Source: Chloroflexota bacterium (GTDB lineage Bacteria; Chloroflexota; Anaerolineae; Anaerolineales; UBA4823). From it: a stretch of 64,000 nucleotides of DNA. The position numbers and the translations under genes were made by a program. The DNA is taken from assembly GCA_040752025.1 (NCBI GenBank), contig JBFMFR010000019.1, forward strand, positions 1-64,000. The letters run 5' to 3'. A model generated the notes under the pieces. The model had not been told where the DNA came from. It made no database searches and saw only the letters and a program-made list of their open reading frames with translations. Positions 360 through 22,490 of the stretch are shown here, in pieces. The first letter of the stretch is position 1, and each line of letters opens with the position of its first letter.

Positions 360-3300
360 CTAGGCAACCTGCGAACCTCCATAATCTCCCAGTTGTTCCA
401 GCTTCTCCCGCACTTGCTGTAATAATTCGTCCAGTTCAAAGGGCTTGTTCAAACAAACCAGCGCATTCTTTTCTAGAAATTGGCGCGTACCTGCGCTCAC
501 CGAGTCTCCAGTGGAAAAAACGACTCGCTGGGTCAGTTCAGGGTAGATTAATTCCAGCATTTGATAGAATTCTAGGCCGCTCATTTCAGGCATACGAATA
601 TCACACAGAATCAATGCATAATGATCATTTTTCAACAGCTCCAGCCCGACCATCGCATTGTTTACTGCCTCCACCAGGAAACCTTCCTGCTCCAAAATTC
701 GTTTCAGAACCTCTAACACACCCGGTTCGTCGTCGATAACCAGGATACGCGCAACCTGGCGCTCCGGGTCTATTTTCTTTTCCTCGGCGGTGGTTGAAAA
801 CAATAGACCATGTATCTCTATTTCCTCTGGCAGGATCAGGGGCAACTCGATATAAAAAGTAGTCCCCTGCCCAATCTCACTCTCTGCCCAGATGTGCCCA
901 CCATGCTCGCTGACAATCCCATGACAAATAGACAAACCCAGGCCTGTACCCTGCCCAGGGGGTTTGGTGGTAAAGAATGGATCGAAAATCGTCGCGAGCG
1001 TCTCTGGTGCGATTCCCGGTCCATTATCCCGAAATCGGATGCGGACCATCGGCGACTTATCCGCTTGAGCTATCCCAAAGATCGATAAGCCCAGTTCCGT
1101 TGTAACCAACAATCGCCCGGCTTGCCCGGACTGCCCATGCATGGCTTGCCAGGCATTGGTAATAATATTGACAAAGACTTGCTGTAACTGGTGAGGGTCC
1201 GCCATCGTATACGGCAAGTCGACAGCAAACTTTGTCTCAACCTGGATATTGTGAGTTCGCAATTCGTATCCCAGAAGTTCCAAAGCGCCCTGCAAAACGC
1301 TATTGATCTGGACCGGTTTGCGTTCCGCCGGGCGCTGGCGAGCGAATTCCAATAGACCACGCACAATCCGGCTGGCTCGTTGCGCCTCCGTTACAATTCG
1401 GTCCAAATCTCGATTGAAACGAATATCAGCAGATTGAGCCTGTAGCAGTTGAGCAAACAGCACGACAGAGGTCAACGGGTTATTGAGCTCGTGCGCCACC
1501 CCAGCTACCAGTTCACCAATCGCCGCCAGTTTTTCGCTCTGCACCAATCGCGCCTGAGTTCTCTGCAGCGTGGTATACTGCGCTTCAAGGTTCTCGTGTA
1601 ATTCAGAGCGATACATCGCATTCGCCACAATATCGCCGATCGCTACCAGCAAGTTCAACTCAGCCTCACTGATCTCGGTATTTCTTCCAATCCACAAACC
1701 TCCCATCAGCCGCTTGTCAGCGATCAATGGAGCTCCTGCGACACACTGCATCCCCAAGATAGGTTGCAGGTCAGTCTCTTGGGCAATAATTTCGCCCTCC
1801 AGGTGCAACGCGTTATTATCTAAATAGGGTTGGTCGAATCTGATTTTCCCAGCTTCACTTTCCTCCCCAAACAGAAACGCTTTGCCCGAAAACTGATCCC
1901 ACGCACCCATCCCGACCTCGAAAACAAAACCATCATGCCCGGTATCTTTGGTAATGAATGCCGCTCCCTCAGCATCGAAAAGCGATAACAGTTGCTCCAA
2001 CACGACTGAGGGGATATCTGCCCGAGTTCTGACTACGCGCATAGCTGCCGATACTTGCGCCAATGCCTCCATTTCCTCCGCTCGCTTGCGCGTCTCCTCC
2101 AGTAACCTTAAGCGCGCGATCGCCAACGCGATCAAACTAGCCGCCTGTTCACACCGCTGAACTTCTGCCTGGCTAAACGCATGGGTTTGACGGAAACCAA
2201 ACAGAACCGCCCCCAACTTTTGTCCACCTGCTTGTAAAGGGACTCCCAGCAAAGAACGGGATGGATATAGCGCCGCGATCTTCGGATCTAAATGAGGTGA
2301 GTTGAATACATCCTCAGCGATCAAAGCCTGCCCTGCATTCAGCACCGCAGCCGTCATTGAGCGTTCGCCAGCAGTTGTCTTGGCGATCCGGTAAGCTTCT
2401 CGCGCTTCTCCTGAAGCGGCCAACGGAATCGACCTCTGTTGGGCGTCATCCCAGCCCGTAATGTAGCACTCGTCTGCGTTAATCAACTTAGCCAAACGAT
2501 CAGATAGCGCCTGTATTACAATCATCAGGTTTTGGGAAGCCAGGGAAACTTGGGCAATCTCGTTCAGAGCTTGCAAAAACTCATGCCGCTCTCTCAATTC
2601 TTGCTCTGCTCTTCTGCGTTGACTGATATCCAATGCCGTGAAAGTCACACCAGCCGCTAGATCAGATGGATCCAGAGGCGTTGAGCTAAGCAAGACGTAC
2701 AAAATCGCCCCATCCCGATGCTGCCAGCGTGTTTCTACGGTTCCTGTTCCGCGCATCTGAATCTGGTCATATTTTTCGCGCCCCACAAAGTCAAAATCCT
2801 CATCCGATGGATATAGCACACGTGCGCTCTTCCCTACCAATTCTTCTTGGGTGAAGCCCACCATCTCGCAGATCCGTTGGTTAACCTGCTGCAAGACTCG
2901 ATTCTGAACCAGGCCGATCCCCACTGGCGCCACCCGGAAAATACTGCTCAAAGACGCTTCTCGCTCGCGTAATGCCAGTTCTGCCTGCTGCCGTCGAATC
3001 GCTGCCCCCAGGATACTGGCTGCTGCCCGCAGCGTCTCGATCTCCACAGATAACCATTCGCGCTCGTACCGGCATTCATCCAACCCAACGAAACCCCACC
3101 AGGTTAAACCTACCTTTACAGGCACAATCAAGATCGACTGGATATTCTGACCAGCGAGCAATTCCTGCTCGCCCAGCGGGAGACTGGCCACCGGTCCGGC
3201 AACTACCTCACCATGTGCGAGGATTTGTTCCCAGCGCGCCATCCCTGCAGCTTGATAGGGAACACCTTGCAAACTCGGGTTATCGATCTGCGCTTCAATT

Positions 3301-6300
3301 CCAGCCGCCGCCCATTCGTAGATCTGGTTGGAGCACAACTGCCCGTCCGAATTGAGCATGTTCTCGAAAACATACACCCGGCTGGCATCCGCTGCTTGCC
3401 CCAGGCGCTCCAATACCTCCTGAACAACATCCTGCAAAACACCCTCGCTCAAAAACCGCTCCGCCGCGAAGCTTACAGCTTCCAAAATACGGTCACGTCG
3501 GTCCAGGGCAGCTTGGGTACGTTGACGTTCTCCTAATTCATTCTGTGTAGATTGGTATAAACGGGCGTTTTCCAGAGCGGTCGCCACCTGTCCCGCCACA
3601 GTTTCCATCACCATTACATCATTATCATCAAATGCGCCTGCTTCAGAGCTTTGCACATCCAGCACACCCAAAACCTGTTCCCCCAATCTCACCGGTACAC
3701 TCAATTCAGAACGCGCCTCGGGCACTTCGGGATATAAGTGCACATAATGTTCTTCCGCGGCCACATCATTAGCCAACAAACTGTGCGCATGCGCCGCTAC
3801 CCAGCCCACCATACCCTGTTCCATCGCCAGGGCATGGTTCTCGGGATACAGCGCGGCCCGTTCCCCCACCATCACCTTCGCCTCCAGCATATTATTCGCA
3901 TGATTTAGCAAAAATATCCCCACGTGCTGGTAGCCAAAACGCTCCTGGATCAAGTTAGCTGCCCGACCAACCACTTCGGACGGCGCCAGTAGCGCTGCAA
4001 TCTGTCTACCCACATCGTTGAGCAGCGCCAGTTGCGCAACGCGCTTCTTCATCGACTCTTCCGCCCGTTTGCGATCTGTAATATCCAGCGCAGCTCCATA
4101 AAAATGCACCGGCTTGCCATGATCGTCAAGGACAACCCGTACCTGGTCGTGCAAATAGCGAACTGCGCCATCCGGGCGAACAATCCGGAATTCGATATCA
4201 AACGGTTCGCCTTGTTCGCGAGCCAGGCTTATCGTCCGAGCCAATTTCTCCCGGTCATCCGGATGTACCAGGCTGTGCATTGTCTCAAAAGAAGGTTCAC
4301 CATCCAGGTAGCCCATAATCTCCCGCATCTGTTGTGACCACCTCACTTGGCCACTGCGCGAATCCCAATCATAGCTACCCAATTTAGCTATCTCTTGAGC
4401 CAGGCTCAAACCCGCCTGACTTTGCCGCAAGGCGGCTTCCGCTTGCAATCGTACGATACTGCCCCCAATATGTGCTGCAATAGCCTCCAGAGCATTGCGC
4501 GTGCTGGGGGGGAAATCATCGTGAGTGTGTGAAGCCAGGTTGAAACAAGCAATGACCCGGTCTTCATGCAGCACCGGGATCCCAGTCAATACTTTTAGGG
4601 CCTCATTTTCGCGTACACCACCTTCCGCCTCTGGAAAAGCCTCTGAATATTTTTTATAGTAAGGCCTACCAGCTTTAATCAGTTCTGCCTGAGGCGTATC
4701 TGCCTCGAAGCAATGGACAGCTTGCACAAATTCATCGGTAAAACCACGGTGAGAAATCAGATCTATCCCCCCACTCTCTTGATTGACAAGATATACCCCG
4801 CCGCTATCAACCCCCTCGTATTCTAGCGCCGTCTCCAGGGCTCGATCCAAAGCCTCTGTCAAACTGCGCGCCGAACCAACCGCTACCGCCAGATCCCGCT
4901 CGATTTGCAATGCTGCCTCCGCCAGCTTGCGCTCTGTAATATCTAGCATCACCCCGCGCAGGCCAGTTGCCTGATCCGCCTCAACCACCACTGTTACCAC
5001 ATCTCGGAACCACAAAGTTTGTCCATCAGCAGAGATCATGCGATACTCGAACTCGTAATTTCGCATTTCCTCCACTGCCTGATGTGAATAGGCCGGTGCC
5101 CATTCTCGATCATCCGGATGCATATGCGTTTGCCAAAAATCTGGATCCTGAGCCCATAGATCCACCGGGTAACCCAGAAGGCGCTCTGCCTGGCGGTTGA
5201 CAAAAGTATATCCTGGGCGGCGCAAGTCGATTTCCCATACAATTCCTTCGATCGTATTGACCAGGTCATCCAACACCTGGCGAGCTTGTTGTTGCCCAAT
5301 TGCAGTTCCAAACATCCGTGCAGCCGTACGTAAAGCATCCACTTCAGCATCCATCCAGGTTCGCCCCTGTGTACAATCATCAAAACCCATAATCCCCCAA
5401 CAACGTCCTCCCACAAAAATTGGCACGGCCAGGAAAGAAGTAATATCCAGTGCAGACAGGATTTCTTGCACCCAGGCTGGAAATTCAGATGTGTAACCAA
5501 TTATTGGCTGCCCGGCCATTATCACATTGAACCAATGCTTCAACTCCGCTGCTGACAAAGGGATATCCCGCAACTGAAGGCCTTCCACCTGCGTTGCAAT
5601 CCCGGGCGCAGCCCACTGGAAACGCTGGCTGGTGAATTGTGCGCCAGTCGGATCGACGCGGTTTTCAAAGACATGTACCCGACTGGCCCCAGCTGCCTCA
5701 CCCAGGATTGCCAATACCTGTGTGATCTCGCTAGTCCAATCCGCCTCGCGCAAAAAACGCTCAGCAGCCAGGTTGATCGCCTGCAAGATCACATCTCTAC
5801 GCAGCAAAGCCTCTTCAGCCTGCACTGCTGCACTGACATTTTCAACAGTCGTCACCATGCCATCGATTTGGCCATCCTCATCAAACAAAGGCGCAGCATT
5901 GATCGACAGCAGCACTCGCCGTCCATCTGGCCACTGAATCGCATGCTTCACTTGCTGGACTGCCTGTCCTGAGCGCATTACCTTAACGAACGGTAACTCG
6001 TCATCCGGGAATGCACTCCCATCAAAGGCAGTTATTTGCCACCCAGGATCGTTATAGTCCCGATGACTGATCTCGTCTCGCTCCAATCCCAATACTTGTT
6101 CAGCGCGAGGGTTAGCAAAAACAATCTTTCCGGCTCGATCCAGGGTGACAATCCCCGCTGGGCTGGTTTCCATCACCTGCGCAATCAGGTCCCGCTCGCG
6201 CTGCAAAGCTTGCTCGGTCCTAACGCGTTCCGTGACATCCTGGAATATCGAAACCATCTTACCTGGGGAAGCTCGGAAAGCATGCACTTCAAAAGCGCCT

Positions 6301-6890
6301 GCTATTTGCCCCTCCTGATAGGTTATCTGGTCAGCTTTCCAACTCTCTCCCGACGAGGCCACCTTGCGATAATTTTCCGGCACCTCTAAGTCGACCAGCC
6401 CTGGAAAAGCTTCCTCAATTGTCTTACCTATGAATTGCCGGTTATCTACGCCCAGGATTTTGTCCGCTGCTGGGTTGGCTCCTTCGAACACCAGGCTCCC
6501 ATCTAACCGAAGCTCATATATGTGCATACCCAAAGGAACGGAATTCACAATGCTGCGGAATTTCTCTTCCGACTCTCGTAGCGCCTCTCCCATGCTGCGC
6601 AATTCTCTTTCCGCCAAGGTCAAATCCTGGAAATAATGGCGGATACGCCAGACACCGAGGAACATCAATAATGAGATAAACAATCCTAAGGCATCGAAAG
6701 AGACCGCGGCTTTAAATAAGTAGTCTCCACCTAAACTAAACAAAGACACAAAACGCCGGGCAGCCATCAGAGCCATACCCACCGCGATCAACACCCAGGC
6801 CACCCTGCGGCCTGTCAACGGGATCAATTGCAAGGCCAGAAATGCCGCCCCAAGTTGTAGAACGATAGAAAGCAAAATTAACAACACCAT
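360..6890 (-). CDS. Multi-sensor hybrid histidine kinase (N-terminal TM region, multiple PAS and GAF domains, HisKA, HATPase_c, C-terminal receiver)
   Basis: 2176-aa ORF. H-box HELNNPLTS, ATPase motifs DNGPGI and [12 protein letters not shown]-terminal receiver [10 protein letters not shown]...[12 protein letters not shown]. Repeated PAS/GAF blocks. Confidence 0.9.
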
Positions 6891-7044
6891 CGCAGCATTA
6901 CCTCCTGCCTGACAAATACCTGGCTTGCCCAGACAACGCCATAAGAAAAAAGCACCATTTTAGTTTAGCATATTCTGGCATGTTGTGCACCTGCCTTCAA
7001 AATCATTCGGTGCGACATCATCGATTCTGCAACACAGTTTGATG

Positions 7045-7050
7045 TATAAT
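7045..7050 (+). promoter_or_regulatory. TATAAT -10-like hexamer in the divergent intergenic region upstream of nfeD
   Basis: gatgTATAATg seen in sequence, about 165 nt upstream of the 7215 start. No good -35, so weak. Confidence 0.25.
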
Positions 7051-7134
7051 GATTCTACATGATCCGAGAGCAAGGTGCTTCAGCCTGAGGGTTTCGCTAA
7101 TCTCCTAAGATATTATGAGTTGCACTATCCATAG

Positions 7135-7146
7135 ATTGTATACAAT
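7135..7146. promoter_or_regulatory. Perfect 12-bp palindrome ATTGTATACAAT, candidate operator upstream of the nfeD-flotillin-pspA operon
   Basis: Exact dyad symmetry seen in sequence 70 nt upstream of the nfeD start codon. Confidence 0.3.
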
Positions 7147-7214
7147 CCAATCAACAATATTCGAAACGCCCCACAGCCTGCACTTGCTCGCCAAGTTTGC
7201 GTTGAGGGATACCT

Positions 7215-8036
7215 ATGATCGAAATCTGGAATTCTATCTCCACCTGGTATAACCTGCCCTTTACACTGCTGATCGCCATGGGCCTGATGCTTTCCGCCCT
7301 GCAATTAATCGGCCTGGGTGGCGACCAGGACAGTGAAAGTGATCTGGATCACGAAGTCGATCTACAGCATGACGTAGATCTAGATCACGATCTGGATTTG
7401 GATCATGATCTGGATTTGGATCATGAACTCGACCTTTCCCACGACATCGACGCCGATCACGATCTGGAGTTGGGACACGATTTGGAACACGACATCGATC
7501 ACGATTTCGAACAAGATCTTTCCCATGATATAGATGCTGGGGCATCATTTCTGAATCTAATGGCCTTCCTGGGCGTTGGCAAAGTGCCCCTGATGGTTGT
7601 ATTGTTAATCTTCTTCTACTCAATCGGTATGTTGGGCTGGCTGCTGAATGGTTTAGTGCGCTCGATTTTCAATGTGTATCCTGGTGCAATCTTCGCAGGC
7701 ATATTGCCGGCTGCTGTGATCGTTGGCAGCCTGATCACTTCACGCGCAACGCGCTTCATCGGGCAGGTTCTTCCTCCGATCAGCACCACCGCAACGCGCG
7801 CCCAGGGATTGGTAGGCCGGCGCGGCAAAGTGACCAGCCCTTTCGTGGACGATAAATACGGTCTGGTACATATACGCGACTCAGGCGGTACGCTCATCAG
7901 CATTTTTGTGGTCTCTCAGGACGAAGAACCAATTCCGCGAGGCGAAGAAATCCTGTTGTTATCCTATCAAGCCGAACAAAAACGTTATCTGGTAACACGC
8001 GCCAACCCCAATTTACCACCGGCGCATCAACTGTAG
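7215..8036 (+). CDS. NfeD-like membrane protein (YuaF-like short form) with C-terminal OB-fold domain and an unusual Asp/His-rich repeat insert
   Basis: Several TM segments. C-terminal GRRGKVTSPFVDDKYGLVHIRDSGG...ILLLSYQAEQKRYLVTRA resembles the NfeD beta-barrel. Lies immediately upstream of a flotillin gene, the classic NfeD-SPFH pairing. Confidence 0.65.
   Translation: MIEIWNSISTWYNLPFTLLIAMGLMLSALQLIGLGGDQDSESDLDHEVDLQHDVDLDHDLDLDHDLDLDHELDLSHDIDADHDLELGHDLEHDIDHDFEQDLSHDIDAGASFLNLMAFLGVGKVPLMVVLLIFFYSIGMLGWLLNGLVRSIFNVYPGAIFAGILPAAVIVGSLITSRATRFIGQVLPPISTTATRAQGLVGRRGKVTSPFVDDKYGLVHIRDSGGTLISIFVVSQDEEPIPRGEEILLLSYQAEQKRYLVTRANPNLPPAHQL
7341..7537 (+). repeat. In-frame imperfect tandem repeat (about 18-nt unit gatcacgatctggatttg) encoding DLDHDLDLDHDLDLDHELDL...
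   Basis: Seen in sequence: at least 10 consecutive D-x-D-H/H-D-L-D units (DLDHEVDLQHDVDLDHDLDLDHDLDLDHELDLSHDIDADHDLELGHDLEHDIDHDFEQDLSHDIDAG) inside the NfeD-like CDS. Confidence 0.75.
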
Positions 8037-8074
8037 TGAAAACTACACATCAACAATAGAGAAGGAGTGCCACA

Positions 8075-10147
8075 ATGGACAGCATATTCTCATTCAGCCT
8101 TCTGTTCGGGGTTTTGCTGCTCTTTCTGGTGTTCCTGGTATTCATCAGGACCATCTTGAAAGCATACGTAAAGACCCCCGCCAACCGGGCATTTGTCCGC
8201 ACGGGAGGCTTCAGCCCGCTGGGGCAACGCACGCCCTCGCCTCCCAAGGTTGTTATGAATGGTGGAGCCTGGGTGTTCCGCACTTTCCACGAAATTACCT
8301 GGGTAGACCTGGGAACCATGGCGATTGAAATCGAACGCACCGAAAATAACGCCCTGGTAACCATCGACCCTCAATATGCGGACATCAAAGCCATCTTTTA
8401 CATCAAGGTCAATCCCACGGTGGAAGGCATCAGCGATGCCGCCAGGACGATCGGCAGCAAACAAGTTGATGCCGAAGCCGTCAAGCAACTCGTCGATGCC
8501 AAGCTGGATGGCGCCCTGCGCGACGTAGCCGCATCTTTCAGCCTGATGAGCCTGCACCAGGAGCGCGAGAAATTCATCCAGGAAGTACAGAATCGGTTGA
8601 AGACGGACCTGGAAGAAAATGGCTTGGTATTGGAAGCAGTTGCGATCCTGACCCTGAAAGCTGCCCGCCAGGGCTCCTTCGGCACCGATGATGTCTTCGG
8701 CGCCCAGGTGGCCCGCGCTAATGCTCAAGTAATCCAGAAGGCCCTGAAAGAACGCAACGATATCGAACGCCAAACGGAAATCGAAATCAAACAACGCGAC
8801 ACCGAAACCGCCAAGCTTCGCCTGGATCTGGATCGCGACGTTGCCCTGGCTACCGCTGCACAAGACCGCGAGATCCGCTCTGTGCAAGCCGAACAAAAAG
8901 CCCAGGCTGAACAAAGTGAGTTCGAGCAAATGCAAAAGTCCGAGGCCGCCCGCGTGACCAAGGAACGTTCCGTTGCGCTGATGGAAATCGAGCGCGACCA
9001 GCAGGTTGCTATCCAGAACGAGCGCAAACAGCAGGAAGTCATGGCCACCGAGGTAACACGCCGGCAGGCCATCGAACTGGCCGAACAACAGCGCCAGATT
9101 GTTGTCACGCAGGAACAGCAGAAACGCGAGAACGCTGAAAAAGAGCGCATGGTTGTTTCCGCCGCTCGTGAAGAAGCTGCCCAGGCCGTGATCACCGTAC
9201 AGGCCACACAGGAAGCCCAACGTGAAGCCAAGATCAAAGTGATCGAAGCTGAGCGCGAGGCCCAAAAAGCAATGATCGAGCAGAAGAACCGCATCGAGCT
9301 CGAAGCGCTCCGCAAACAGCGCGAGGCTGAAGCCCAGGCTAAAGCCATGAAAGAAATCGCCAATGCCGAAGCCGAGGCTGCTCTCAAGCAGGCCGAAACC
9401 CTGCGCACACAGGCCAAGGCCGAGGCAGAAGCCGGGAAATTGCATGCCGAGGCCTCCAAAGCCAAAGAATCTGCCACCGGCCTGGCCGAAGCGGAGATCA
9501 TGCGCGCCAAAGCCGAAGCCGCCATGCGCGAAGCTGAAGCAATACGCGCCAAGGGCCTCGCCGAAGCAGAATCCGAAAAAGCCAAAGCTGAAGCCCTGGC
9601 AGCCTTCGATGGCGTCGCTCAAAGAGTGGAAGTGCTCAAACTGCAGCTCGATGCACAGATTCGCATCGAAATCGCTAAAGCCCAGGCTCTCGGTCAGGCA
9701 TTGGCCTCTATGGATCTCAAGTTGATCGGCGACCCGAACGCCGCCGCCACGCTGCTGCGCATGGTAACCCTGGCCGATGGTATCGGTGAAGTTCTCAAAG
9801 CTGCCCCACAGCCCGTGCGCGAGGCTGGCCAACAGCTCATCAATAAGCTCACAGGCGATAGCACAGGTAGCGGGTTGGTGGATATCGCCCCACAGGAACA
9901 ACAGTCTGGCCGCTCACTTCCCGAACTGGCCCAGCTCCTGCCCGAGTTGATCCAACTGATCGATGCACATCTGGACATCGAAAAGCTCAAAGGCAAGTCG
10001 GTTGGCGAAGCCCTGGAAGCCCTCTCTCGAAAGGTGAGCGAAAAAGATCGCCCCACCGTCAAGAAAGCTCAAGATGCTTTCGCCGTTCTGCCGATCTTGA
10101 ATGATCTCCCCTTTGAAGATCTTTACCTGCGAGCGACAACCAAATAG
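8075..10147 (+). CDS. Flotillin-like SPFH/Band-7 protein (YqiK/FloT type) with long Ala/Glu/Lys-rich coiled-coil tail
   Basis: 690 aa. N-terminal TM then SPFH-like region, followed by extended EA-repeat coiled coil (AEAEAALKQAETLRTQAKAEAEAGK...), typical of flotillins. RBS AAGGAG before the ATG. Follows the NfeD gene. Confidence 0.85.
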   Translation: MDSIFSFSLLFGVLLLFLVFLVFIRTILKAYVKTPANRAFVRTGGFSPLGQRTPSPPKVVMNGGAWVFRTFHEITWVDLGTMAIEIERTENNALVTIDPQYADIKAIFYIKVNPTVEGISDAARTIGSKQVDAEAVKQLVDAKLDGALRDVAASFSLMSLHQEREKFIQEVQNRLKTDLEENGLVLEAVAILTLKAARQGSFGTDDVFGAQVARANAQVIQKALKERNDIERQTEIEIKQRDTETAKLRLDLDRDVALATAAQDREIRSVQAEQKAQAEQSEFEQMQKSEAARVTKERSVALMEIERDQQVAIQNERKQQEVMATEVTRRQAIELAEQQRQIVVTQEQQKRENAEKERMVVSAAREEAAQAVITVQATQEAQREAKIKVIEAEREAQKAMIEQKNRIELEALRKQREAEAQAKAMKEIANAEAEAALKQAETLRTQAKAEAEAGKLHAEASKAKESATGLAEAEIMRAKAEAAMREAEAIRAKGLAEAESEKAKAEALAAFDGVAQRVEVLKLQLDAQIRIEIAKAQALGQALASMDLKLIGDPNAAATLLRMVTLADGIGEVLKAAPQPVREAGQQLINKLTGDSTGSGLVDIAPQEQQSGRSLPELAQLLPELIQLIDAHLDIEKLKGKSVGEALEALSRKVSEKDRPTVKKAQDAFAVLPILNDLPFEDLYLRATTK

Positions 10148-10166
10148 CGAACGGTATATTTCTGCC

Positions 10167-10793
10167 ATGAAATGGTCCCAGCGTCTGCGACTTGCACTCC
10201 AAACTTTCCTGAAAGATATTTTCAGTGAAGAAGTGGCGCCTGCCAATAACAGTACATCTATGCACGCTGCGGATGAACTCTTGAGCCAGGTGATCGCCAA
10301 AGCGCAGACTCGTCTGGATACCTTGCGTGTCGAGTTGGCCAATGCGCAGTCTCACCAAAAGCGCATTGAGCTTGACTGGCAGCAAACCCAGGCGCAAGCG
10401 CAGGCCATGAGCGACGCTGTGGACCATGCCCTACAAGCCGGGCAAGATGATTTAGCCCGTTACAAGCTGATACAAACACAGGCGCTTGAGAAGAGAGTAC
10501 AAGAACTCTACGAACTCAACCAGTCCTATGCACAATGGGTGAGCATGCTTCGAGAGGCTGTCTACACTCAACAAGCCAGGCTGGAAAGCACCCAACGCAA
10601 GGCGCATGACCTTCTTCACCGGGAGCGCAGCGCTGAAACCCTGGAAGAACTCTCCAACCTGCGTCGCGAATTGGATCGCCAAATGAACACACTTCAGACC
10701 GATTTGAGAGCGCGCCAGGAACAGCTCGAACGCCGTGAAGATCGCATTGCCGCCCGCCAAGAGATCAACCGCCGCAACGAGAGTCGAGAGTAG
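10167..10793 (+). CDS. pspA: PspA/IM30 (phage-shock protein A / Vipp1 / ESCRT-III-like) family protein, copy 1
   Basis: All-helical coiled-coil protein about 210 aa; profile similar to PspA (LDTLRVELANAQSHQKRIELDWQQTQAQAQAM...). Start chosen at MKWSQRLRLALQTFLKDIF (amphipathic N-helix); the upstream in-frame ATG at 10101 overlaps the flotillin 3' end. Confidence 0.7.
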   Translation: MKWSQRLRLALQTFLKDIFSEEVAPANNSTSMHAADELLSQVIAKAQTRLDTLRVELANAQSHQKRIELDWQQTQAQAQAMSDAVDHALQAGQDDLARYKLIQTQALEKRVQELYELNQSYAQWVSMLREAVYTQQARLESTQRKAHDLLHRERSAETLEELSNLRRELDRQMNTLQTDLRARQEQLERREDRIAARQEINRRNESRE

Positions 10794-10796
10794 CAC

Positions 10797-11270
10797 ATGG
10801 CCCTATCACCCGAACAACAACACGCCTTGGATGAACTGGTAAGCTATATACCCGAGCAAAAACCGGTTCAACCCGACTGGTTGAAGACCTGGTTGGGCTT
10901 GTCGAAGGAAGACGTGAAATCTGCTGTAAACTCTCTGCTGGCTGTCAAAGGCGAGTACGAGGGCAAATTCCTAGATTGGATTGAAGCCAGTCCACTGGAT
11001 GCAACCTTCGAGTTCATTGCTATCGCATCCTGGGCGTATTACCAGGTAGAAAAGGGAGATAACCCCAAAGTCAATACCTTTATTGATGCGTTTTACTATA
11101 TCTCTACCTGCGCATCAGTCGGATATGCCGATGTCTTCGCAGCTACGCAAACTGGGCGAGCCATCGCCTCGCTGGTCATGATCGTGGGTCCTTCCATTAC
11201 GAACCAGGCCCTGGCACGCCCGAAACGAAGCTGCGCGAACGATACCGCAGGACAACCAGAAATTTCATAA
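10797..11270 (+). CDS. Small two-TM potassium-channel-like pore protein (filter SVGYAD) with about 75-aa N-terminal soluble domain
   Basis: FIDAFYYISTCASVGYADVFAATQTGRAIASLVMIVG aligns with the KcsA pore helix/filter/inner helix (ALWWSVETATTVGYGDLYPVTLWGRCVAVVVMVAG). Start is 3 nt after the pspA-1 stop, so likely translationally coupled. Confidence 0.55.
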   Translation: MALSPEQQHALDELVSYIPEQKPVQPDWLKTWLGLSKEDVKSAVNSLLAVKGEYEGKFLDWIEASPLDATFEFIAIASWAYYQVEKGDNPKVNTFIDAFYYISTCASVGYADVFAATQTGRAIASLVMIVGPSITNQALARPKRSCANDTAGQPEIS

Positions 11271-11307
11271 ACCATGCCTATGTTTCAAATGGAAAGGAGA
11301 AAAAACC

Positions 11308-11988
11308 ATGGCTACCTTACTTGAGAAAGTTTCAACCTTGATCTCGGCAAATCTGCATGCCCTCGTAGACCAGGCGCTTGAGAGCAACAGCCTGGCAGTA
11401 GTCGATCAGTATATTCGCCAGGTAGAGGAACAATTGGAGAACCTGGAAGACGCGGCCACCACCGTGGGCGGAGAAATCCGCTCCCTCAGACGCAAGCTGG
11501 ATGAGCACCAACAAAAAGCGACCGAACTGGATCGTGCCATCGACGCCTTCTTGGTGGAAGGCAACGATACTGCAGCCGCCTCCACCCAAAGCAAGCTCAA
11601 CAGCACTCAGCGTCTGGTAGAAACCTACCAGGCCCAGATCGCCGGTCAGGAAACCGAATACCAGAAGTTGCTGGATGCCAAAGTGAAGCTTGAAGCCCGC
11701 CTGGCAACTATGAAGCAGCAGCGCGACGAACTGCAATCCCTGCTGGAGCTGGCCAAGAGCAAAGAGGTCGTTGTCAAAACCGTCAAGAGCCTGGATGATA
11801 TGATGGGCTCGGGTGACAGTGATGTCAGCCGCATCGCCCAGAGCATCTACAATCGCCTGGACAAAGCCTCCGCTGCTGTTGAATTGCGCTCTACTGGCCT
11901 GGATGAACAGATCGATCGTGTTCTCGAACGCGACGCAATCAACGCTCAATTGGAAGAGCGCAGGAAGCGCCTGGTCAAGAAACAATAA
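11308..11988 (+). CDS. pspA: PspA/IM30 family protein, copy 2
   Basis: 226 aa. N-terminal MATLLEKVSTLISANLHALVDQALE matches the conserved PspA first helix; coiled coil throughout. RBS AAAGGAG. Confidence 0.8.
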   Translation: MATLLEKVSTLISANLHALVDQALESNSLAVVDQYIRQVEEQLENLEDAATTVGGEIRSLRRKLDEHQQKATELDRAIDAFLVEGNDTAAASTQSKLNSTQRLVETYQAQIAGQETEYQKLLDAKVKLEARLATMKQQRDELQSLLELAKSKEVVVKTVKSLDDMMGSGDSDVSRIAQSIYNRLDKASAAVELRSTGLDEQIDRVLERDAINAQLEERRKRLVKKQ

Positions 11989-12032: not shown

Positions 12033-12080
12033 CCTGAGGCTTCCTCTGAAATAACGAGGAAGCCTCAGGATTTGTTATAA
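12033..12080 (+). terminator. Rho-independent terminator after pspA-2 (14-bp perfect stem, 9-nt loop, T-rich tail)
   Basis: cctgaggcttcctc-tgaaataac-gaggaagcctcagg followed by atttgttataatt. The tail also contains TATAAT, which may serve as the -10 for the next gene. Confidence 0.6.
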
Positions 12081-12119: not shown

Positions 12120-13760
12120 ATGACCAGAACATCAAAGCCCTGGCAAACGCCCAAAGTCATCTTCAATCCACAAGCCTATCAGGGCATGCAGCGTGGCATC
12201 AATGCCCTGGTGGATGCGGTCCGCCCAACATTGGGGCCGTTTTCTCGCCTGGTAATCAACGATGACGCCATCCGCCAGCACAAGCTCGAGTTCCTGGATA
12301 GCGCTGCTCTCATTGCACGGCGCATTACCCAGATCGAAAATCGCGACGCCGATATGGGTGCCATGTATCTGCGCCAACTGCTCTGGCATTTGCATGAGAC
12401 AACCGGTGACGGCACTGCCGCTGCCGCGGTATTATTCGAATCAGTGTACAACCTCGGCATTCGCTACCTGGTTGCTGGCGGCAACGCTATGCGCCTGCGC
12501 CGTTACCTTGATGAAGGCGCCGGCTTCATCCTGGAGCAGTTCGCAGGACAGACCCAGCAGGTATCTGGGCCAGGCGAACTGGCGCGTCTGGCAGAAACCA
12601 TCTGCTATGACCCACCCCTCAGCCAGGCGCTGGGCCAGGCTTTCGACCTGATCGGCCCTTATGGGCGATTAGAGATCCGTCCAGGGCGCGGTCGAGATAT
12701 CGAACAGGAATATGTTCAGGGTAGTTACTGGGACAGCGGTTTATCCTCGCCATTGCTGGTCACCGATGCCCGCACCCAGCGTGCTGAGCTAGACAACCCT
12801 GCCATCTTGATCAGCGACCTGGAAGTGCAAGAACCCCAAGACCTGATCCCAATCCTGGAGGCAACACTGTCCTCGGGGGCCGAATCTTTGCTGCTGATTG
12901 TAAAGGCGCTCTCCGAAAAAGCGCTCTCCCTGCTGGCCTCACCGGCCAACCGCCAGAGACTGCCCATGACCGCCGTCAAAACGCCCGGGGCAGAGATGAC
13001 TAAACTACACAACCACCTTCAAGATATAGCCATCCTGACTGGCGGTCAATTCCTGACCCAGGCCACTGGCGCCAAACTTGATGCAGTGCGCATCGAGCAT
13101 TTGGGGCGAGCACGCCATGCCTGGGCTAACGATCAGTACTTTGGCATCACCACGGGCAGCGGAGACCCCATATCGATACGCCAGCACACTGCCAGCTTAA
13201 AAGCCGCTTACGAACGCGCCGAGAAAGCCAGCGATCAGAAAGATCTACTGGCGCGCCTGGGCAATCTACTTGGAGGTACAGCAGTTTTGTGGATTGGCGA
13301 CCTGAATCTCACCACGCTTGAGCTGCGCAAAGAAAAAGCATCGCGCACCGCCGACGCGCTGCGCGGCGCCTTGCGGCACGGCCTGCTGCCGGGTGGAGGC
13401 GTGGCGCTGCTGGATTGCCGCCCCGCACTACAGGCGCGCCTGCATGCTGCTGGCGATGCGGATGAACGCGCCGCTTATCACATCCTCCTCCAGGCGGTTG
13501 AGGCCCCTTTCCGCACCCTGCTCCATAATGCCGGTTTCAATCCCAGTGAGATTTTTGCACAATTACCCCAATCTGAGCCAGGCTACGGCTTCGATGTCAC
13601 CCGCCAGCGTACGGTGAATATGAGCCAGGCTGGCATCCTCGACTCTGCTGCCGTAATCCGTGCTGCTACCTGGGGTGCAATCCACAGCGCAGCCCTGGCG
13701 CTCACCGTGGATGTACTCGTGCACAAGGCTAACCCCCTGGATTCCTCACATGCCCCGTAA
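12120..13760 (+). CDS. Divergent group I chaperonin (Cpn60/GroEL-family) paralog
   Basis: 546 aa. Retains the GroEL signatures GDGTAAAAVL (GDGTTTATVL), LLPGGGVALL (VVAGGGVALI) and AVKTPGAE...LQDIAILTGG ([24 protein letters not shown]), but is otherwise highly divergent, lacks the C-terminal GGM tail, and has no adjacent groES. Confidence 0.7.
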   Translation: MTRTSKPWQTPKVIFNPQAYQGMQRGINALVDAVRPTLGPFSRLVINDDAIRQHKLEFLDSAALIARRITQIENRDADMGAMYLRQLLWHLHETTGDGTAAAAVLFESVYNLGIRYLVAGGNAMRLRRYLDEGAGFILEQFAGQTQQVSGPGELARLAETICYDPPLSQALGQAFDLIGPYGRLEIRPGRGRDIEQEYVQGSYWDSGLSSPLLVTDARTQRAELDNPAILISDLEVQEPQDLIPILEATLSSGAESLLLIVKALSEKALSLLASPANRQRLPMTAVKTPGAEMTKLHNHLQDIAILTGGQFLTQATGAKLDAVRIEHLGRARHAWANDQYFGITTGSGDPISIRQHTASLKAAYERAEKASDQKDLLARLGNLLGGTAVLWIGDLNLTTLELRKEKASRTADALRGALRHGLLPGGGVALLDCRPALQARLHAAGDADERAAYHILLQAVEAPFRTLLHNAGFNPSEIFAQLPQSEPGYGFDVTRQRTVNMSQAGILDSAAVIRAATWGAIHSAALALTVDVLVHKANPLDSSHAP

Positions 13761-13774
13761 ACCCAGATACCAAC

Positions 13775-14749
13775 ATGACAACAAATAAAAATGCTATTGA
13801 AGACACACTTGGAGACTCCCACACTGTGGATATCGTATATCAAATCGTAACCAGCCCCTCAGGATGGTACGCTGCCCGCAATTCCGGCTTGTATTTTTCG
13901 ATAAATCAAGGGCAGTCCTGGCAATCTGCCTACGCCTCACTCAATCTCTCGGAACCGCTGCCGACCCTCGCTCTGGCAGTTCCACCTGCCCAAGAGCAAT
14001 CGCCCATCGTATTTGCCGGCCTGGACGGCGGGTTACTTCGCTCGTTACATGGCGTCGACCAGTGGGAATCTTTACCGTTGCCCTCCCCCTTGCCCACCTT
14101 TACCGCCTTGGTATCTTCCCCCGAGTTCGAAAAGGATGGCCTATTGTTCGCCGGGACCATGCAAGACGGTGTGCTGATATTCACCAATCCAGGCCCGAGT
14201 TGGGCTGCCTGGAATTTCGGCCTTCAAGATGCGAACATGCTCTGCCTGGCTTGTTCGCCTGATTTCGCCAGGGATCAGATGCTCCTGGCAGGTGTGCAAA
14301 GCGGCCTGTTCCGCAGCACAAACGCTGGGCGCTCCTGGCAAGAAATCGATCTTCCAGTAGGTTATGTCCCTGTCCTCTGTATTGCCTGCTCGCCAGACTT
14401 TGCTCAAGACGGTGTGATTTTTACCGGAACTGAAACGCAAGGCTTATTACGCTCGAGCGATGGTGGGCAGACCTGGCATCAGTTGCTACAGGAACCCCTT
14501 GCTGCCGATCAGCCTTTGAACGCCATTTTACTGGGCAGGGACTATCCGGCAAAACCGGAAATCCTCATCCTATATGGCAGCAGCCTGCTGTATTCGCCGG
14601 ATGATGGCCTCACCTGGCAGCCTTGGTTAGCGGGCGAACTAAACGGACAGGAGGTTACAGCCTGTGCGGCTCCGCAAGGCTTTAGCGCGAACGCCCCGAT
14701 CATCGTTGGCCTGGCAGGTGGCGAAATTCGCCTGCTTTCCCCGGTGTAA
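13775..14749 (+). CDS. BNR/Asp-box repeat beta-propeller protein (Ycf48-like / sialidase-like fold)
   Basis: Repeated S-x-D/N-x-G-x-S/T-W motifs (INQGQSWQSA, STNAGRSWQEI, SSDGGQTWHQL, SPDDGLTWQPW). Confidence 0.5.
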   Translation: MTTNKNAIEDTLGDSHTVDIVYQIVTSPSGWYAARNSGLYFSINQGQSWQSAYASLNLSEPLPTLALAVPPAQEQSPIVFAGLDGGLLRSLHGVDQWESLPLPSPLPTFTALVSSPEFEKDGLLFAGTMQDGVLIFTNPGPSWAAWNFGLQDANMLCLACSPDFARDQMLLAGVQSGLFRSTNAGRSWQEIDLPVGYVPVLCIACSPDFAQDGVIFTGTETQGLLRSSDGGQTWHQLLQEPLAADQPLNAILLGRDYPAKPEILILYGSSLLYSPDDGLTWQPWLAGELNGQEVTACAAPQGFSANAPIIVGLAGGEIRLLSPV

Positions 14750-18342: not shown

Positions 18343-18526
18343 TGTGTCTCCGTTCTATAGAATTATCCAGCAAAATGTGCCAGGACGAAAACGGTCGCGC
18401 CACAATACACGCGGCTCATCCGCCTCTTGCTGCCTGAATCAAACCGGTCTTCTGGTGAACCTTGCAAACGAACATATCTTCACATACTTTAACCTGCCTG
18501 CTATGATCGGCACTTCACAAGGTGCC

Positions 18527-19087
18527 TTACCCACCCACAATGCTGATGGTCACATAGGTTCCATCGAACAGGAAATCCACCTCGATTTCAACAGTAGCCT
18601 TACGCCCTTCTTTTTGGAAAACCAGCTTGGCCATCTCGTTAGGCAAATCGACCTTGGATTCGGCTTCCACCTTTATCCACCCGTTCACAGGCATCTCGCG
18701 CTCGTAGAAATCCACCGCGGCCTTGATTTCTGCCTCTACCCCATATTCAACGGAAGTCGGGGAAGTGAAATCCATCTTTGCTCCCGGCATCACCGGGATA
18801 TCCGCCGGCTTCTCTCCCATCGGCTCTTCGGTCTCGTCGAAGAATGGGATGCCCGTTTCATCGAGAAATGGGATATCGGTAAACTCAGCCGCCATGGTAT
18901 CGATCATTCCTTCACCGCCCATATCCGTTATCAGCGCATCGACCTCAGTTCCGATGCTTTCCATCTCGGTCTCGATACCTTTCTCTATCTGGCGCTCGAC
19001 GACCCCCGAGAGCATACTGCAGCCCAGGGCGATTACAACCAGGATAGAGATCAGCCAAAGATATTGAAAGAGTTTCTTGCTGTGCAT
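18527..19087 (-). CDS. Hypothetical acidic lipoprotein
   Basis: Signal peptide plus lipobox (LGCSM); Glu/Asp-rich. No recognisable domain. Confidence 0.45.
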   Translation of the reverse strand: MHSKKLFQYLWLISILVVIALGCSMLSGVVERQIEKGIETEMESIGTEVDALITDMGGEGMIDTMAAEFTDIPFLDETGIPFFDETEEPMGEKPADIPVMPGAKMDFTSPTSVEYGVEAEIKAAVDFYEREMPVNGWIKVEAESKVDLPNEMAKLVFQKEGRKATVEIEVDFLFDGTYVTISIVGG

Positions 19088-19168
19088 AGTTCCTCCAAAA
19101 ACCTTGCTTCACTAAACTTGTTCAGAAAAACCGACTAACCTTCCATACCGCTAAATTAATTTGCTAAT

Positions 19169-20630: not shown

Positions 20631-22490
20631 GTGAAAATACACAGCGACTCGATCCGGAAACTGCTTACAATACCGTGGATAGCAGAAATCATAGCCCTCA
20701 TAGGCGGGTTGTGGAGCACTCTACAGCTTTGGCGTTTTGCCCATCTGCAAGACTCGGTGCTCGATGAGGGAGCTTATGTCTACAAAGGCTATTTATTTGC
20801 CAGTGGTCAATACCAGCCCTACCAGCCCTATGGGCCCTGGAGCAACCACATGCCGCTGGCCTTTCTCATCCCGGGTTACATCCAGGAATGGTTTGGGCCA
20901 GGCTTACGCACCGCGCGTCTGTTTGCCATATTCACAGCGATCCTGATGCTATTAGGCCTCTGGCTGCTCATCCGGCGGCTGAGCACGCGCGGGTGGGCCG
21001 CGAGCGCGATCTGGATCATGGCGCTAAACCCGGCCATGCTGAAAGCTTACAGCACGGCCGTATCGCAAGGATTGACTGCCTGCATGCTGGTCTGGGTTCT
21101 GGTGCTCGTTTTGGGAGAACGCCGTTCAGTCTGGCAGTTGGTGCTGGGGTCAATCCTGGCCGGATTGATCGTGATGACGCGCGAAAATATGCTCCCGATC
21201 CTGCCCCTCCTGGTGCTCTATTTGCTTTGGGAATATGGCTGGCGGATTGGCCTGCTATCGGCCTTCGCCAGCGGCCTGACCTTGATCTTCTTTTTCGCCC
21301 TGTACTGGCCCAATATCATGCAAGTGTGGAATCGTCTGCCGCGCTGGGCCACTCCCTTTCTGAGCGCCTGGCGGCTTCCCAAGGACTACGATGGCACTTG
21401 GGACCCTACGGTCACCAACGCCGGTCGCGTTTTGAGCTTCTTCCATGCACTGCGCTTTCAATTTGCCAGCATCATAGGCCCTCTCGCAGCAGTACTGCTT
21501 TGGCCCAAGACTTGGAAAAGCAAAGCTCAATTCCGCAGCGGGGTTTTTCTCCTGGCGCTTTTCGTGGCCTTGATGGCCACGCACATGTGGGCTGCTCTGG
21601 GCAAAGAGTATTGTGTTTTCTGCCTGGCAGGTTACGTGGCATTCTTCTCTCCCTTGGGCCTGATCCTGCTGATCCTGACCTTTCAAAACTGGCGCAGCCA
21701 GCTCCCCATCTGGTTGCAAGTAATCATTATCGTTATGATCTTATCCAGCAGCGCCGGGTTGGGTTTTGGATCTTTCGAAGAATTAGGCAAATCTATCTAC
21801 AATATCAGCATTCCGCAATGGCTGTTGGGTTCAAGTACCCCGGGTTCGGCCGCCCTGGGTGCAGTGTTGGTCAACAAATTCGGCCTGCTGGCGCAAGATT
21901 TACGCCGAATCTTGCCCACCGTCTTTGGCTTTGCCTTAGGGGTTTTGGTATTGCTCCTGGCCTGGAGCGCCAGGAAAATCACCCATTCCAGGCGCCAATC
22001 GTTTGGATACTGGTCTTTGGTTACTTTTCTTGTTCTCGGGATTTTGCTCAGCCCAACCCTGGTTCTGGGCGGCGGTTATAATGCTTATGACTGTTCAGAA
22101 GATGTAATCGCTTCTTACGAAGCTGCCGGGCAGCACCTGGCTGCCACGATTCCCCCTGGCTCACGCGTTTACTGGCGCGGCACTCTTTCTGCTGTTCCGC
22201 TGCTGTATGTGCCGGACATCCGCATCTATCCGCCCCAAATCAACGATGGCTACACTTACCTGGAAGGCGGTGAAGATCTGGATCAGATCTATCGCCTGGG
22301 CAGGTGGAACGAAGCTCTGGCGCGCCAGTGGTTGGATGAAGCCGATATCTTGCTGGTCGAAGCCCGCTTTTTCAAAGGCTGGCTGCGCGACGCCATCATG
22401 ACTCTGCCCCTAGAACAATTACCACCCACGCCGCCCACCGTTTATTGCCGGGAAGACTCGCAAATCTTGATCTTCAAGAAAATCCCCTGA
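20631..22490 (+). CDS. GT-C fold membrane glycosyltransferase (family 39/83, ArnT/PMT-like)
   Basis: 619 aa, about 12 TM segments. Early periplasmic loop DEGAYVYKGY (the DE motif of ArnT/PMT-type transferases). GTG start. Confidence 0.65.
   Translation: MKIHSDSIRKLLTIPWIAEIIALIGGLWSTLQLWRFAHLQDSVLDEGAYVYKGYLFASGQYQPYQPYGPWSNHMPLAFLIPGYIQEWFGPGLRTARLFAIFTAILMLLGLWLLIRRLSTRGWAASAIWIMALNPAMLKAYSTAVSQGLTACMLVWVLVLVLGERRSVWQLVLGSILAGLIVMTRENMLPILPLLVLYLLWEYGWRIGLLSAFASGLTLIFFFALYWPNIMQVWNRLPRWATPFLSAWRLPKDYDGTWDPTVTNAGRVLSFFHALRFQFASIIGPLAAVLLWPKTWKSKAQFRSGVFLLALFVALMATHMWAALGKEYCVFCLAGYVAFFSPLGLILLILTFQNWRSQLPIWLQVIIIVMILSSSAGLGFGSFEELGKSIYNISIPQWLLGSSTPGSAALGAVLVNKFGLLAQDLRRILPTVFGFALGVLVLLLAWSARKITHSRRQSFGYWSLVTFLVLGILLSPTLVLGGGYNAYDCSEDVIASYEAAGQHLAATIPPGSRVYWRGTLSAVPLLYVPDIRIYPPQINDGYTYLEGGEDLDQIYRLGRWNEALARQWLDEADILLVEARFFKGWLRDAIMTLPLEQLPPTPPTVYCREDSQILIFKKIP

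Follow-up and report, generated by a model that had tools for sequence, protein, structure and literature searches.

We analysed a 64,000-nucleotide stretch (hereafter the window) of contig JBFMFR010000019.1 from a Chloroflexota bacterium of the Anaerolineales (assembly GCA_040752025.1), and focused on a five-gene cluster at positions 7215-11988 of its forward strand. The cluster encodes, in this order, a short NfeD protein of the YqiJ/YuaF type, a long flotillin-like SPFH protein, a first PspA-family protein (PspA1), a small K-channel-like protein with two transmembrane segments (2TM) and a second PspA (PspA2). We consider it probable, at roughly 0.6, that these genes form a single conserved cassette for membrane organisation and repair, which is most likely expressed as one transcription unit. 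The conserved core of the arrangement is NfeD-flotillin-channel, and the channel gene is almost always found beside the gene of the flotillin scaffold. A linkage of NfeD, flotillin and PspA was already known; the new element is the dedicated channel. The features of the region, all on the + strand, are as follows:

6891..7214, +, intergenic region between the cluster and a divergent histidine-kinase gene, presumed promoter and 5' leader
7215..8036, +, YqiJ/YuaF-type short NfeD protein, 273 aa (Pfam YqiJ_N)
7323..7535, +, Asp/His/Leu-rich repeat loop of the YqiJ-type protein (translation, composition)
8075..10147, +, flotillin-like SPFH protein, 690 aa (Pfam Band_7)
10167..10793, +, PspA1, 208 aa from its probable start (Pfam PspA_IM30, family profile)
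10797..11270, +, 2TM pore-only K-channel-like protein, 157 aa (Pfam Ion_trans_2, AlphaFold2, Foldseek)
11115..11132, +, selectivity-filter codons S-V-G-Y-A-D (translation)
11308..11988, +, PspA2, 226 aa (Pfam PspA_IM30)
12033..12069, +, hairpin, probable intrinsic terminator of the cluster (folding compared with shuffles)

The coordinates of the open reading frames agree exactly with a first-pass annotation of this DNA, which had listed five same-strand genes separated by 38, 19, 3 and 37 nt. Each of the products matches its Pfam family above the gathering cut-off (YqiJ_N, Band_7, PspA_IM30, Ion_trans_2 and PspA_IM30, in gene order), and with this the earlier naming of the genes as nfeD, flotillin, pspA and pspA is borne out. 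The PGAP annotation of MEW5870297-301 reads SPFH, PspA/IM30, potassium channel family, PspA/IM30 and cpn60.

The conservation of the arrangement was followed in two directions, with channel-selected loci taken from a genome collection and contig look-ups, and flotillin-selected loci taken from a metagenome scan. In the case of channel selection, 40 non-redundant loci showed YqiJ/flotillin-PspA1-channel with order and strand kept, three showed flotillin and channel without PspA1, and two were cut upstream. Almost all of these loci belong to the Anaerolineae (Anaerolineales, Thermoflexales, Ardenticatenaceae, Ca. Aquidulcis, Trichofilum, Leptovillus), and the closest relatives of the window are Anaerolineae metagenome-assembled genomes. 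In the case of flotillin selection, PspA1 and/or the channel came next in 17 of 18 informative contigs when the flotillins were at least 57% identical. With flotillins from other lineages, about 30% identical, a small channel of the same family stood directly next in 10 of 15 informative contigs, and its filter read SVGYGD, SVGYAD or SVGYT[NS]. The order YqiJ-flotillin-channel was also present in an Armatimonadetes genome (L055) and in a Polyangiaceae genome (L057). Because the linkage is seen in both selection directions and across phyla, the core is NfeD-flotillin-channel; and because the arrangement recurs in dozens of divergent genomes, it lies far beyond chance. The first-pass annotation had named an arrangement conserved nowhere else as the finding that would speak against its operon, and the neighbourhood comparison showed conservation in more than 60 loci. 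Elsewhere, the module showed no linkage to any of the genes that flank it here (histidine kinase, GroEL-like, GH1 and others).

Regarding the spacing of the genes, the junction from PspA1 to the channel is the tightest of the cluster (median 8 nt, at most 10 nt in 24 of 45 loci, several 4-nt overlaps), which indicates translational coupling. From the channel to PspA2 the median distance is 22 nt, with none of the 13 gaps above 52 nt, while the gap from YqiJ to flotillin, 38 nt here, has a median of about 70 nt over 72 loci.

The 157-aa protein matches Ion_trans_2 (PF07885) with E = 2.5e-9 and 37.3 bits (cut-off 22.5). Its AlphaFold2 (AF2) monomer model, with a predicted local distance difference test (pLDDT) score of 75 overall and 85-94 over the pore region, consists of cytoplasmic N-terminal helices (residues 5-16 and 37-64), a first transmembrane helix (TM1, 66-85), a pore helix (95-108), the filter and a second transmembrane helix (TM2, 118-140). 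The top Foldseek matches were all pores of tetrameric K/cation channels (KcsA, KCNQ2, MlotiK1, KvLm), and the family profile matches Lmo2059, KCNQ2 and KcsA. Selection acts on this pore, as residues 97-112, which make up the pore helix and the filter, hold 13 of the 33 invariant positions. Among the Anaerolineae channels the cytoplasmic N-terminal domain is conserved as well, with Q7, L11, W32, G34 and S36 invariant; its motifs read QQxALDxL and TWLGxS. The channel members outside the Anaerolineae have no N-terminal helix and carry a C-terminal 'LDAILxEL' helix instead. TM2 is short, with an invariant Gly-Pro and no long inner helix, which suggests that a classical bundle-crossing gate may be missing; in that case the filter or a bound partner could act as the gate, which is speculation.

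The filter S-V-G-Y-A-D aligns with T-T-V-G-Y-G-D of canonical channels and thus has Ala in place of the second Gly of GYG. Of 120 close homologs, 113 carry SVGYAD, four SVGFAD and three SVGYSD, and none has GYG. For the wider family, 1.84 billion cluster representatives were searched, which gave 182 clusters (50% identity) at E <= 1e-10; among the best 150 of these, the filter SVGY-x-[DN] carried A at x in 54, S in 30, G in 9, D in 8, H in 7, C in 4 and T in 3. One representative of the family, P0258, has lost the filter motif. The first-pass annotation had called this gene K-channel-like, which stands as far as the 2TM pore fold is concerned; the non-canonical filter does not allow K+ selectivity to be assumed. 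We therefore use the label K-channel-like and do not speak of a proven K+-selective channel.

The 690-aa protein matches Band_7 (PF01145; E = 1.4e-13, 51.7 bits, cut-off 23.6), and the best Protein Data Bank (PDB) matches of its family profile are human flotillin-1/2 (9bq2, 9l3g; E = 6e-9) over the SPFH domains. A hydrophobic anchor (residues 1-34) precedes the SPFH domain, behind which come a long coiled coil rich in Ala and Glu and a tail that is conserved at the C-terminus; residues 230-560, approximately, read as EA/Q-rich and heptad-like. Pfam Flot (PF15975) gave no match on this protein, and the NCBIfam FloT equivalog NF058507 reached 51 bits against a cut-off of 700. Due to this low score we refer to the protein as flotillin-like and not as a FloT ortholog. 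Among the Anaerolineae loci it is 63-80% identical.

The product of the first gene matches YqiJ_N (PF21001; E = 1.2e-10, 42 bits, cut-off 23), a domain present in 28 of 29 members of its family; Pfam NfeD (PF01957) stayed at 12.2 bits, below its cut-off of 29.1. For the C-terminal part, the best PDB match of the family profile is the soluble domain of B. subtilis YuaF (2k14, E = 1.2e-3). Hydrophobic segments are found at residues 13-36 (transmembrane), 111-148 and 151-177, followed by a putative C-terminal OB-like domain. Between the hydrophobic segments lies a loop of about 70 residues (DLDHDLDLDH...), where a stretch of 75 aa contains 26 D and 11 H. Its profile gave a weak, compositional match to a region of the zinc transporter ZnT7. 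At the DNA level the loop consists of tandem repeats of 6, 12 and 18 nt, and in all homologs it is acidic and highly variable in length. Judging from its composition, it may be a candidate divalent-cation-binding loop.

In the case of PspA1, the match to PspA_IM30 is just above the cut-off (36.1 bits versus 33.9). A profile of 30 orthologs matches the Vipp1/PspA structures 8qbr and 6zvr from residue 1 on (E = 4e-18, positions 1-182), so that PspA1 is a genuine, fast-evolving PspA. Its identity between loci is only 27-44%, and due to this fast evolution a word-indexed homolog search returned three proteins only; in other loci it was detected with family hidden Markov models built from the retrieved loci. 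Characteristic motifs are an N-terminal amphipathic helix MKLxxR...DLFSEE (MKLxxRxxxxLxxAxxDLF) and a C-terminal RREDxLAAR. The frame is open from ATG 10101, and PGAP places the start at TTG 10113 (226 aa). The family-conserved N-terminus MK[LW] favours ATG 10167 as the probable start, and the PGAP version would then be 18 codons too long. In a group related to the Anaerolineae, a PspA1 of about 160 aa again lies between flotillin and channel. PspA1 is a lineage-specific insertion that is translationally coupled to the channel.

PspA2 matches PspA_IM30 over its full length (E = 1.1e-16, 61.6 bits versus 33.9), and its profile matches Vipp1/PspA structures with E = 1e-6. It shows a mean column identity of 86% over 14 orthologs, and is 71-88% identical in the loci carrying it. 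The PspA1 and PspA2 profiles align to each other with 79% probability in hhalign. Both align to Vipp1 from residue 1-4 (the alpha0 region), the conserved N-terminal segment of PspA2 being MATLLDKVSTLISANLHALVDQA, and an N-terminal amphipathic helix alpha0 is predicted in both. The NCBIfam PspA equivalogs scored far under their cut-offs.

PspA2 has 2727 homologs compared to about 300 for the channel, and it lies next to the channel in just 12 of 51 informative channel loci. Orthologs that are 75-76% identical occur in other Anaerolineae within a different four-gene context (L115:2641-7512, L116:2635-7624, L117:2511-7549), which consists of a protein of about 540 aa, an SBP_bac_11+VWA protein (about 545-568 aa), the PspA and a 274-aa protein without a Pfam match. 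The protein of about 540 aa has an NMT1-type substrate-binding-protein match (NMT1/OmpA) in L115 and L116, and no Pfam match in L117. This SBP-VWA-PspA context resembles one described in PMC11237479. PspA2 is thus the general PspA of the lineage and an add-on to the cluster in one subclade. The first-pass annotation had seen two PspA paralogs bracketing a pore-forming protein in one transcription unit. Given the rare adjacency and the other native context, bracketing is a trait of a subclade and not a design principle.

Next to the comparative data, the signals around the genes were inspected. The region 6891..7214 is the presumed promoter of the cluster; a TATAAT can be read at 7045-7050, and the consensus promoter scan made no call within the region. 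Rfam showed no family match anywhere in the window, thus no known riboswitch or leader. Shine-Dalgarno sequences are found ahead of the YqiJ ATG at 7215 (GAGGGA) and ahead of the flotillin gene and of PspA2 (AAGGAG in both). Internal promoters or terminators had been named beforehand as the observation that would count against an operon, and no convincing one is present in the cluster: the consensus scan detected no + strand terminator, and its six sigma70-like sites do not exceed the expectation from shuffles (3.6 +/- 2.0). One weak sigma70-like match lies at 10133-10160, immediately before PspA1.

Downstream of the last gene, the terminal hairpin noted in the first-pass annotation is confirmed at 12033-12069, with a perfect 14-bp stem, a 9-nt loop and -28 kcal/mol (z = -7.55; 0 of 200 shuffles equally stable). 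The consensus terminator scan missed it because the loop exceeds 8 nt. That the hairpin might be a dispersed repeat was rejected, as it occurs a single time in the window. Directly 3' of it follows AUUUGUUAUAAUU, a U tract with interruptions. Neither pspF, pspB or pspC nor liaI/F/S/R was found among the five genes or their neighbours. Together with the NCBIfam PspA scores far below cut-off, this absence of cognate Psp/Lia regulator or anchor genes indicates that the cluster is not a classical Psp operon.

Several observations weigh against a single, universally linked cassette with a K+ channel. Four channels with adequate flanks have no flotillin neighbour (L043, L051, L054, L056), and five distant flotillins have no channel. 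The gap from flotillin to PspA1 is 297-1151 nt in 8 of 55 loci, and that from PspA1 to the channel reaches 210-292 nt in some lineages; with such long gaps, the genes are not obligatorily on one transcript everywhere. PspA1, if started at 10167, has no obvious Shine-Dalgarno sequence, which suggests coupling to the translation of flotillin. As the U tract behind the hairpin is interrupted, a strong terminator is plausible and unproven. Finally, the filter lacks the second Gly, and this position varies over the wider channel family (A, S, G, D, H, C, T), which makes K+ selectivity, and even conduction, uncertain.

The closest known systems share parts of the arrangement. The NfeD2-SPFH2 operons yqiJ-yqiK of E. 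coli and yuaF-floT of B. subtilis (Hinderhofer et al. 2009, PMC2636767) likewise place a short multi-transmembrane NfeD, with a C-terminal OB-like domain that is putative here, directly upstream of a long flotillin-like SPFH gene, whereas the classical pair has neither a channel nor PspA genes. Compared to yuaF-floT, the flotillin described here is longer (690 aa), far from the FloT equivalog score, and the D/H-rich loop of YqiJ is greatly expanded. PspA operons with band-7/flotillin and YqiJ/YuaF genes are described by Ravi et al. (2024, PMC11237479), and the same type of PspA/band-7/flotillin/YqiJ linkage is known from Acidobacteriota (Popp et al. 2022, PMC9239133). At the centre of their operons stand a beta-propeller AAA+ ATPase and a CesT/Tir-PspA(YjfJ) dyad, both of which are missing from the present cluster. 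In the passages and supplement text searched, neither a pore-only 2TM channel nor a case of this architecture from Chloroflexota is listed. The direct NfeD/SPFH/PspA linkage seen in the first-pass annotation had already been described (PMC11237479, PMC9239133, PMC8581546), and the new part is the channel.

Channels and membrane proteins next to PspA or SPFH genes are also on record. The supplement of PMC11237479 lists a PspA gene directly adjoining a K-channel-family gene in polyamine operons; that channel is a large, ligand-gated one (RCK/TrkA type) without flotillin or NfeD, whereas the present one is a 157-aa pore-only SVGYAD protein tied primarily to flotillin. In B. subtilis pspA-ydjGHI, the SPFH protein YdjI and the membrane proteins YdjG/H are needed to localise PspA (Scholz et al. 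2021, PMC8581546). With its SPFH gene and its genes for small integral membrane proteins beside pspA, this operon offers the closest functional parallel to flotillin, channel and PspA1; YdjI, however, is a soluble-type SPFH protein, YdjG/H are zinc-ribbon/TPM proteins, and there is no channel and no NfeD partner. In the FArhodopsin cluster of SAR11, HIMB59 and Pseudothioglobus, a rhodopsin is co-transcribed with a flotillin of about 660 aa (PMC10308929). There too a specialised, divergent ion-translocating membrane protein is consistently encoded beside flotillin, but the partner is a rhodopsin rather than a K-channel-like pore and the taxa are others; 'PspA' does not occur in the main text of that paper.

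Regarding structure, SPFH assemblies are known to enclose membrane proteins, channels and transporters among them: a stomatin dome with AQP1/UT-B (PMC12407830), a flotillin cage (PMC11260169) and, as cited in PMC13086221, a QmcA-YbbJ cage. Similarly, FliL rings encircle flagellar stators (PMC8794807). The structural logic of an oligomeric SPFH protein around a specific membrane channel would be the same, but the dome, cage and rings are not operon-encoded with their client and an ESCRT-III protein. The channel itself shares with KcsA and the KvLm pore module Lmo2059 the TM1-pore helix-filter-TM2 fold and the S-V-G-Y of the filter. It differs in the second Gly, which is Ala here and S, D, H, C or T in relatives, in the short TM2 with its Gly-Pro and in the extra conserved cytoplasmic N-terminal domain; when aligned to Lmo2059, it has a pore helix that is shorter by one residue. 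In the open-access literature we found no report of a flotillin-linked family of pore-only channels with a GY(A/S) filter or of an Anaerolineae YqiJ-flotillin-PspA-channel(-PspA) cassette, although a description elsewhere is possible. Neither was there anything on operons of flotillin/SPFH with potassium or other ion channels, on a 'GYAD' filter or on KcsA G79A, an absence that is no proof that none has been published.

Under the cassette reading, the YqiJ/YuaF-type NfeD and the long flotillin would form an SPFH scaffold, as a cage or microdomain, at the cytoplasmic membrane face, and the 2TM K-channel-like tetramer would be its dedicated membrane client or partner. In Anaerolineae, PspA1, inserted directly upstream of the channel gene, would be made stoichiometrically with the channel, would probably dock on the channel or on flotillin, and there nucleate or target a PspA polymer of the ESCRT-III type. 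In the subclade of this genome, the main PspA (PspA2) would have been recruited to the operon, so that the bulk polymer is co-expressed. The flux or sensing of a cation, probably K+, would then couple membrane potential or turgor to the PspA protection of damaged or depolarised membrane. The sequence data show the gene identities, folds, order, spacing and conservation and the two-way linkage of flotillin and channel, while co-transcription of the genes, physical contacts between their products, conduction and ion selectivity of the pore and induction by stress are inferred. The combined envelope-stress/ion-leak response unit suggested in the first-pass annotation belongs to this second part as well, since every functional role is here deduced from genomic context. 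A more specific version, which we regard as tentative and rather doubtful, is that of an operon-encoded 'caged channel', the first in prokaryotes: a flotillin/NfeD dome would surround a minimal cation channel with a re-engineered outer filter, PspA1 would be docked on the cytoplasmic domain of the channel, and ion flux or gating would report or correct damage and trigger local PspA polymerisation.

The same observations can be read in other ways. It is conceivable, though unlikely, that the channel is mainly a non-conducting anchor or receptor recruiting PspA1 and that its pore is vestigial, comparable to LiaI for LiaH, PspB/C for PspA or YdjG/H for B. subtilis PspA. The PspA1-channel junction, the tightest and most conserved of the cluster, would fit this role, as would the conserved N-terminal domain as a possible docking site, the missing canonical GYG in 120 of 120 close homologs and the drift of the second-Gly residue over the family up to the loss of the motif in P0258. 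However, no other part of the channel is conserved as strongly across phyla as SVGY and the pore helix, a pattern that a mere anchor would hardly explain. Canonical SVGYGD is kept by some members, among them L104, L108, L109 and L111, and many flotillin-channel pairs have no PspA in between (L046, L055, L057, L066, L068, L074 and 10 distant contigs). This PspA-free core in several phyla leads to a different proposal, in our view quite improbable, that flotillin, NfeD and channel are a homeostasis unit for K+, osmotic state or membrane potential, independent of a Psp response, with the PspA genes as opportunistic neighbours sharing the promoter. PspA2 as a mobile add-on with another native context agrees with it, and stomatin cages have been linked to water/urea transport and volume regulation (PMC12407830). 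Opposed to this, PspA1 is kept between flotillin and channel in 40 of 43 channel-selected loci with both genes despite its low identity, which indicates long-term selection for the position; its start and stop codons overlap or almost abut those of the channel, and experiments in B. subtilis have established a functional coupling of SPFH and PspA (PMC8581546).

Defence systems commonly contain small pore-forming effectors, and with the channel as a membrane-depolarising effector an anti-phage or abortive-infection system could be imagined, which we consider very improbable. PADLOC gave no specific match for YqiJ, flotillin or channel, and the coiled-coil proteins produced only weak noise (low-scoring coiled-coil matches of 14-18 bits for the PspAs). 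Furthermore, the neighbours are housekeeping and carbohydrate genes and do not form a defence island, and the cassette is syntenic over Anaerolineae orders. This synteny, together with the flotillin identity of 63-80%, is taken as a tentative sign of vertical inheritance rather than a patchy spread. As to a fortuitous adjacency of five functionally unrelated and independently expressed genes, the weak sigma70-like match ahead of PspA1 could be cited in its favour; promoter-like sites are nevertheless no more frequent than expected from shuffles, the more than 60 loci keep order, strand and short gaps, and the linkage stands under both ways of selecting loci, with the channel or with flotillin as bait. 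Chance adjacency is therefore essentially refuted by the comparative data.

Regarding the surroundings of the cluster, a divergent GroEL paralog of 546 aa (12120-13760, +) starts 51 nt past the hairpin, with a TATAAT at 12075-12080 just ahead; it scores 323.7 bits for the NCBIfam GroEL subfamily, under the cut-off of 352, and is annotated by PGAP as 'TCP-1/cpn60 chaperonin family protein'. It is followed after 14 nt by a 324-aa BNR/Asp-box beta-propeller (13775-14749, +) with weak similarity to Ycf48 and F510_1955-type glycosylhydrolase-like proteins. Both genes were rejected as parts of the unit, as neither accompanies the module in any related locus. On the other side, a 2176-aa hybrid histidine kinase with multiple PAS/GAF, HisKA, HATPase and receiver domains (360-6890, -) is divergent across the 324-nt intergenic region. 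A role as cognate regulator is unsupported, since the upstream position of the kinase is not conserved where the module occurs elsewhere. Elsewhere in the window, open reading frames of 264 aa (18344-19138, +) and 619 aa (20631-22490, +) have no Pfam match at E <= 1e-5, and between 52000 and 64000 the G+C content climbs from about 0.53-0.57 to 0.61-0.70 toward the window end, which may reflect a compositionally distinct segment.

What the clients of flotillins in bacteria are, and by which signals PspA/ESCRT-III is recruited to membranes, are long-standing open questions. The cassette gives flotillin one concrete candidate client that is genetically tied to it, a pore protein of about 150 aa that should be easy to express and record, and the small-channel family to which it belongs is an uncharacterised branch of the K-channel superfamily. 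Natural variants, with a coupled PspA or none and with G, A, S, D or H in the filter, are suited for experiments in a four-gene system. In this way it could be tested whether SPFH cages regulate bacterial ion channels, whether PspA is targeted via such a complex and how GY(A/S) affects selectivity. If true, the caged channel would be the bacterial counterpart of stomatin-regulated channels and of the ion-triggered ESCRT-III membrane repair of eukaryotes.

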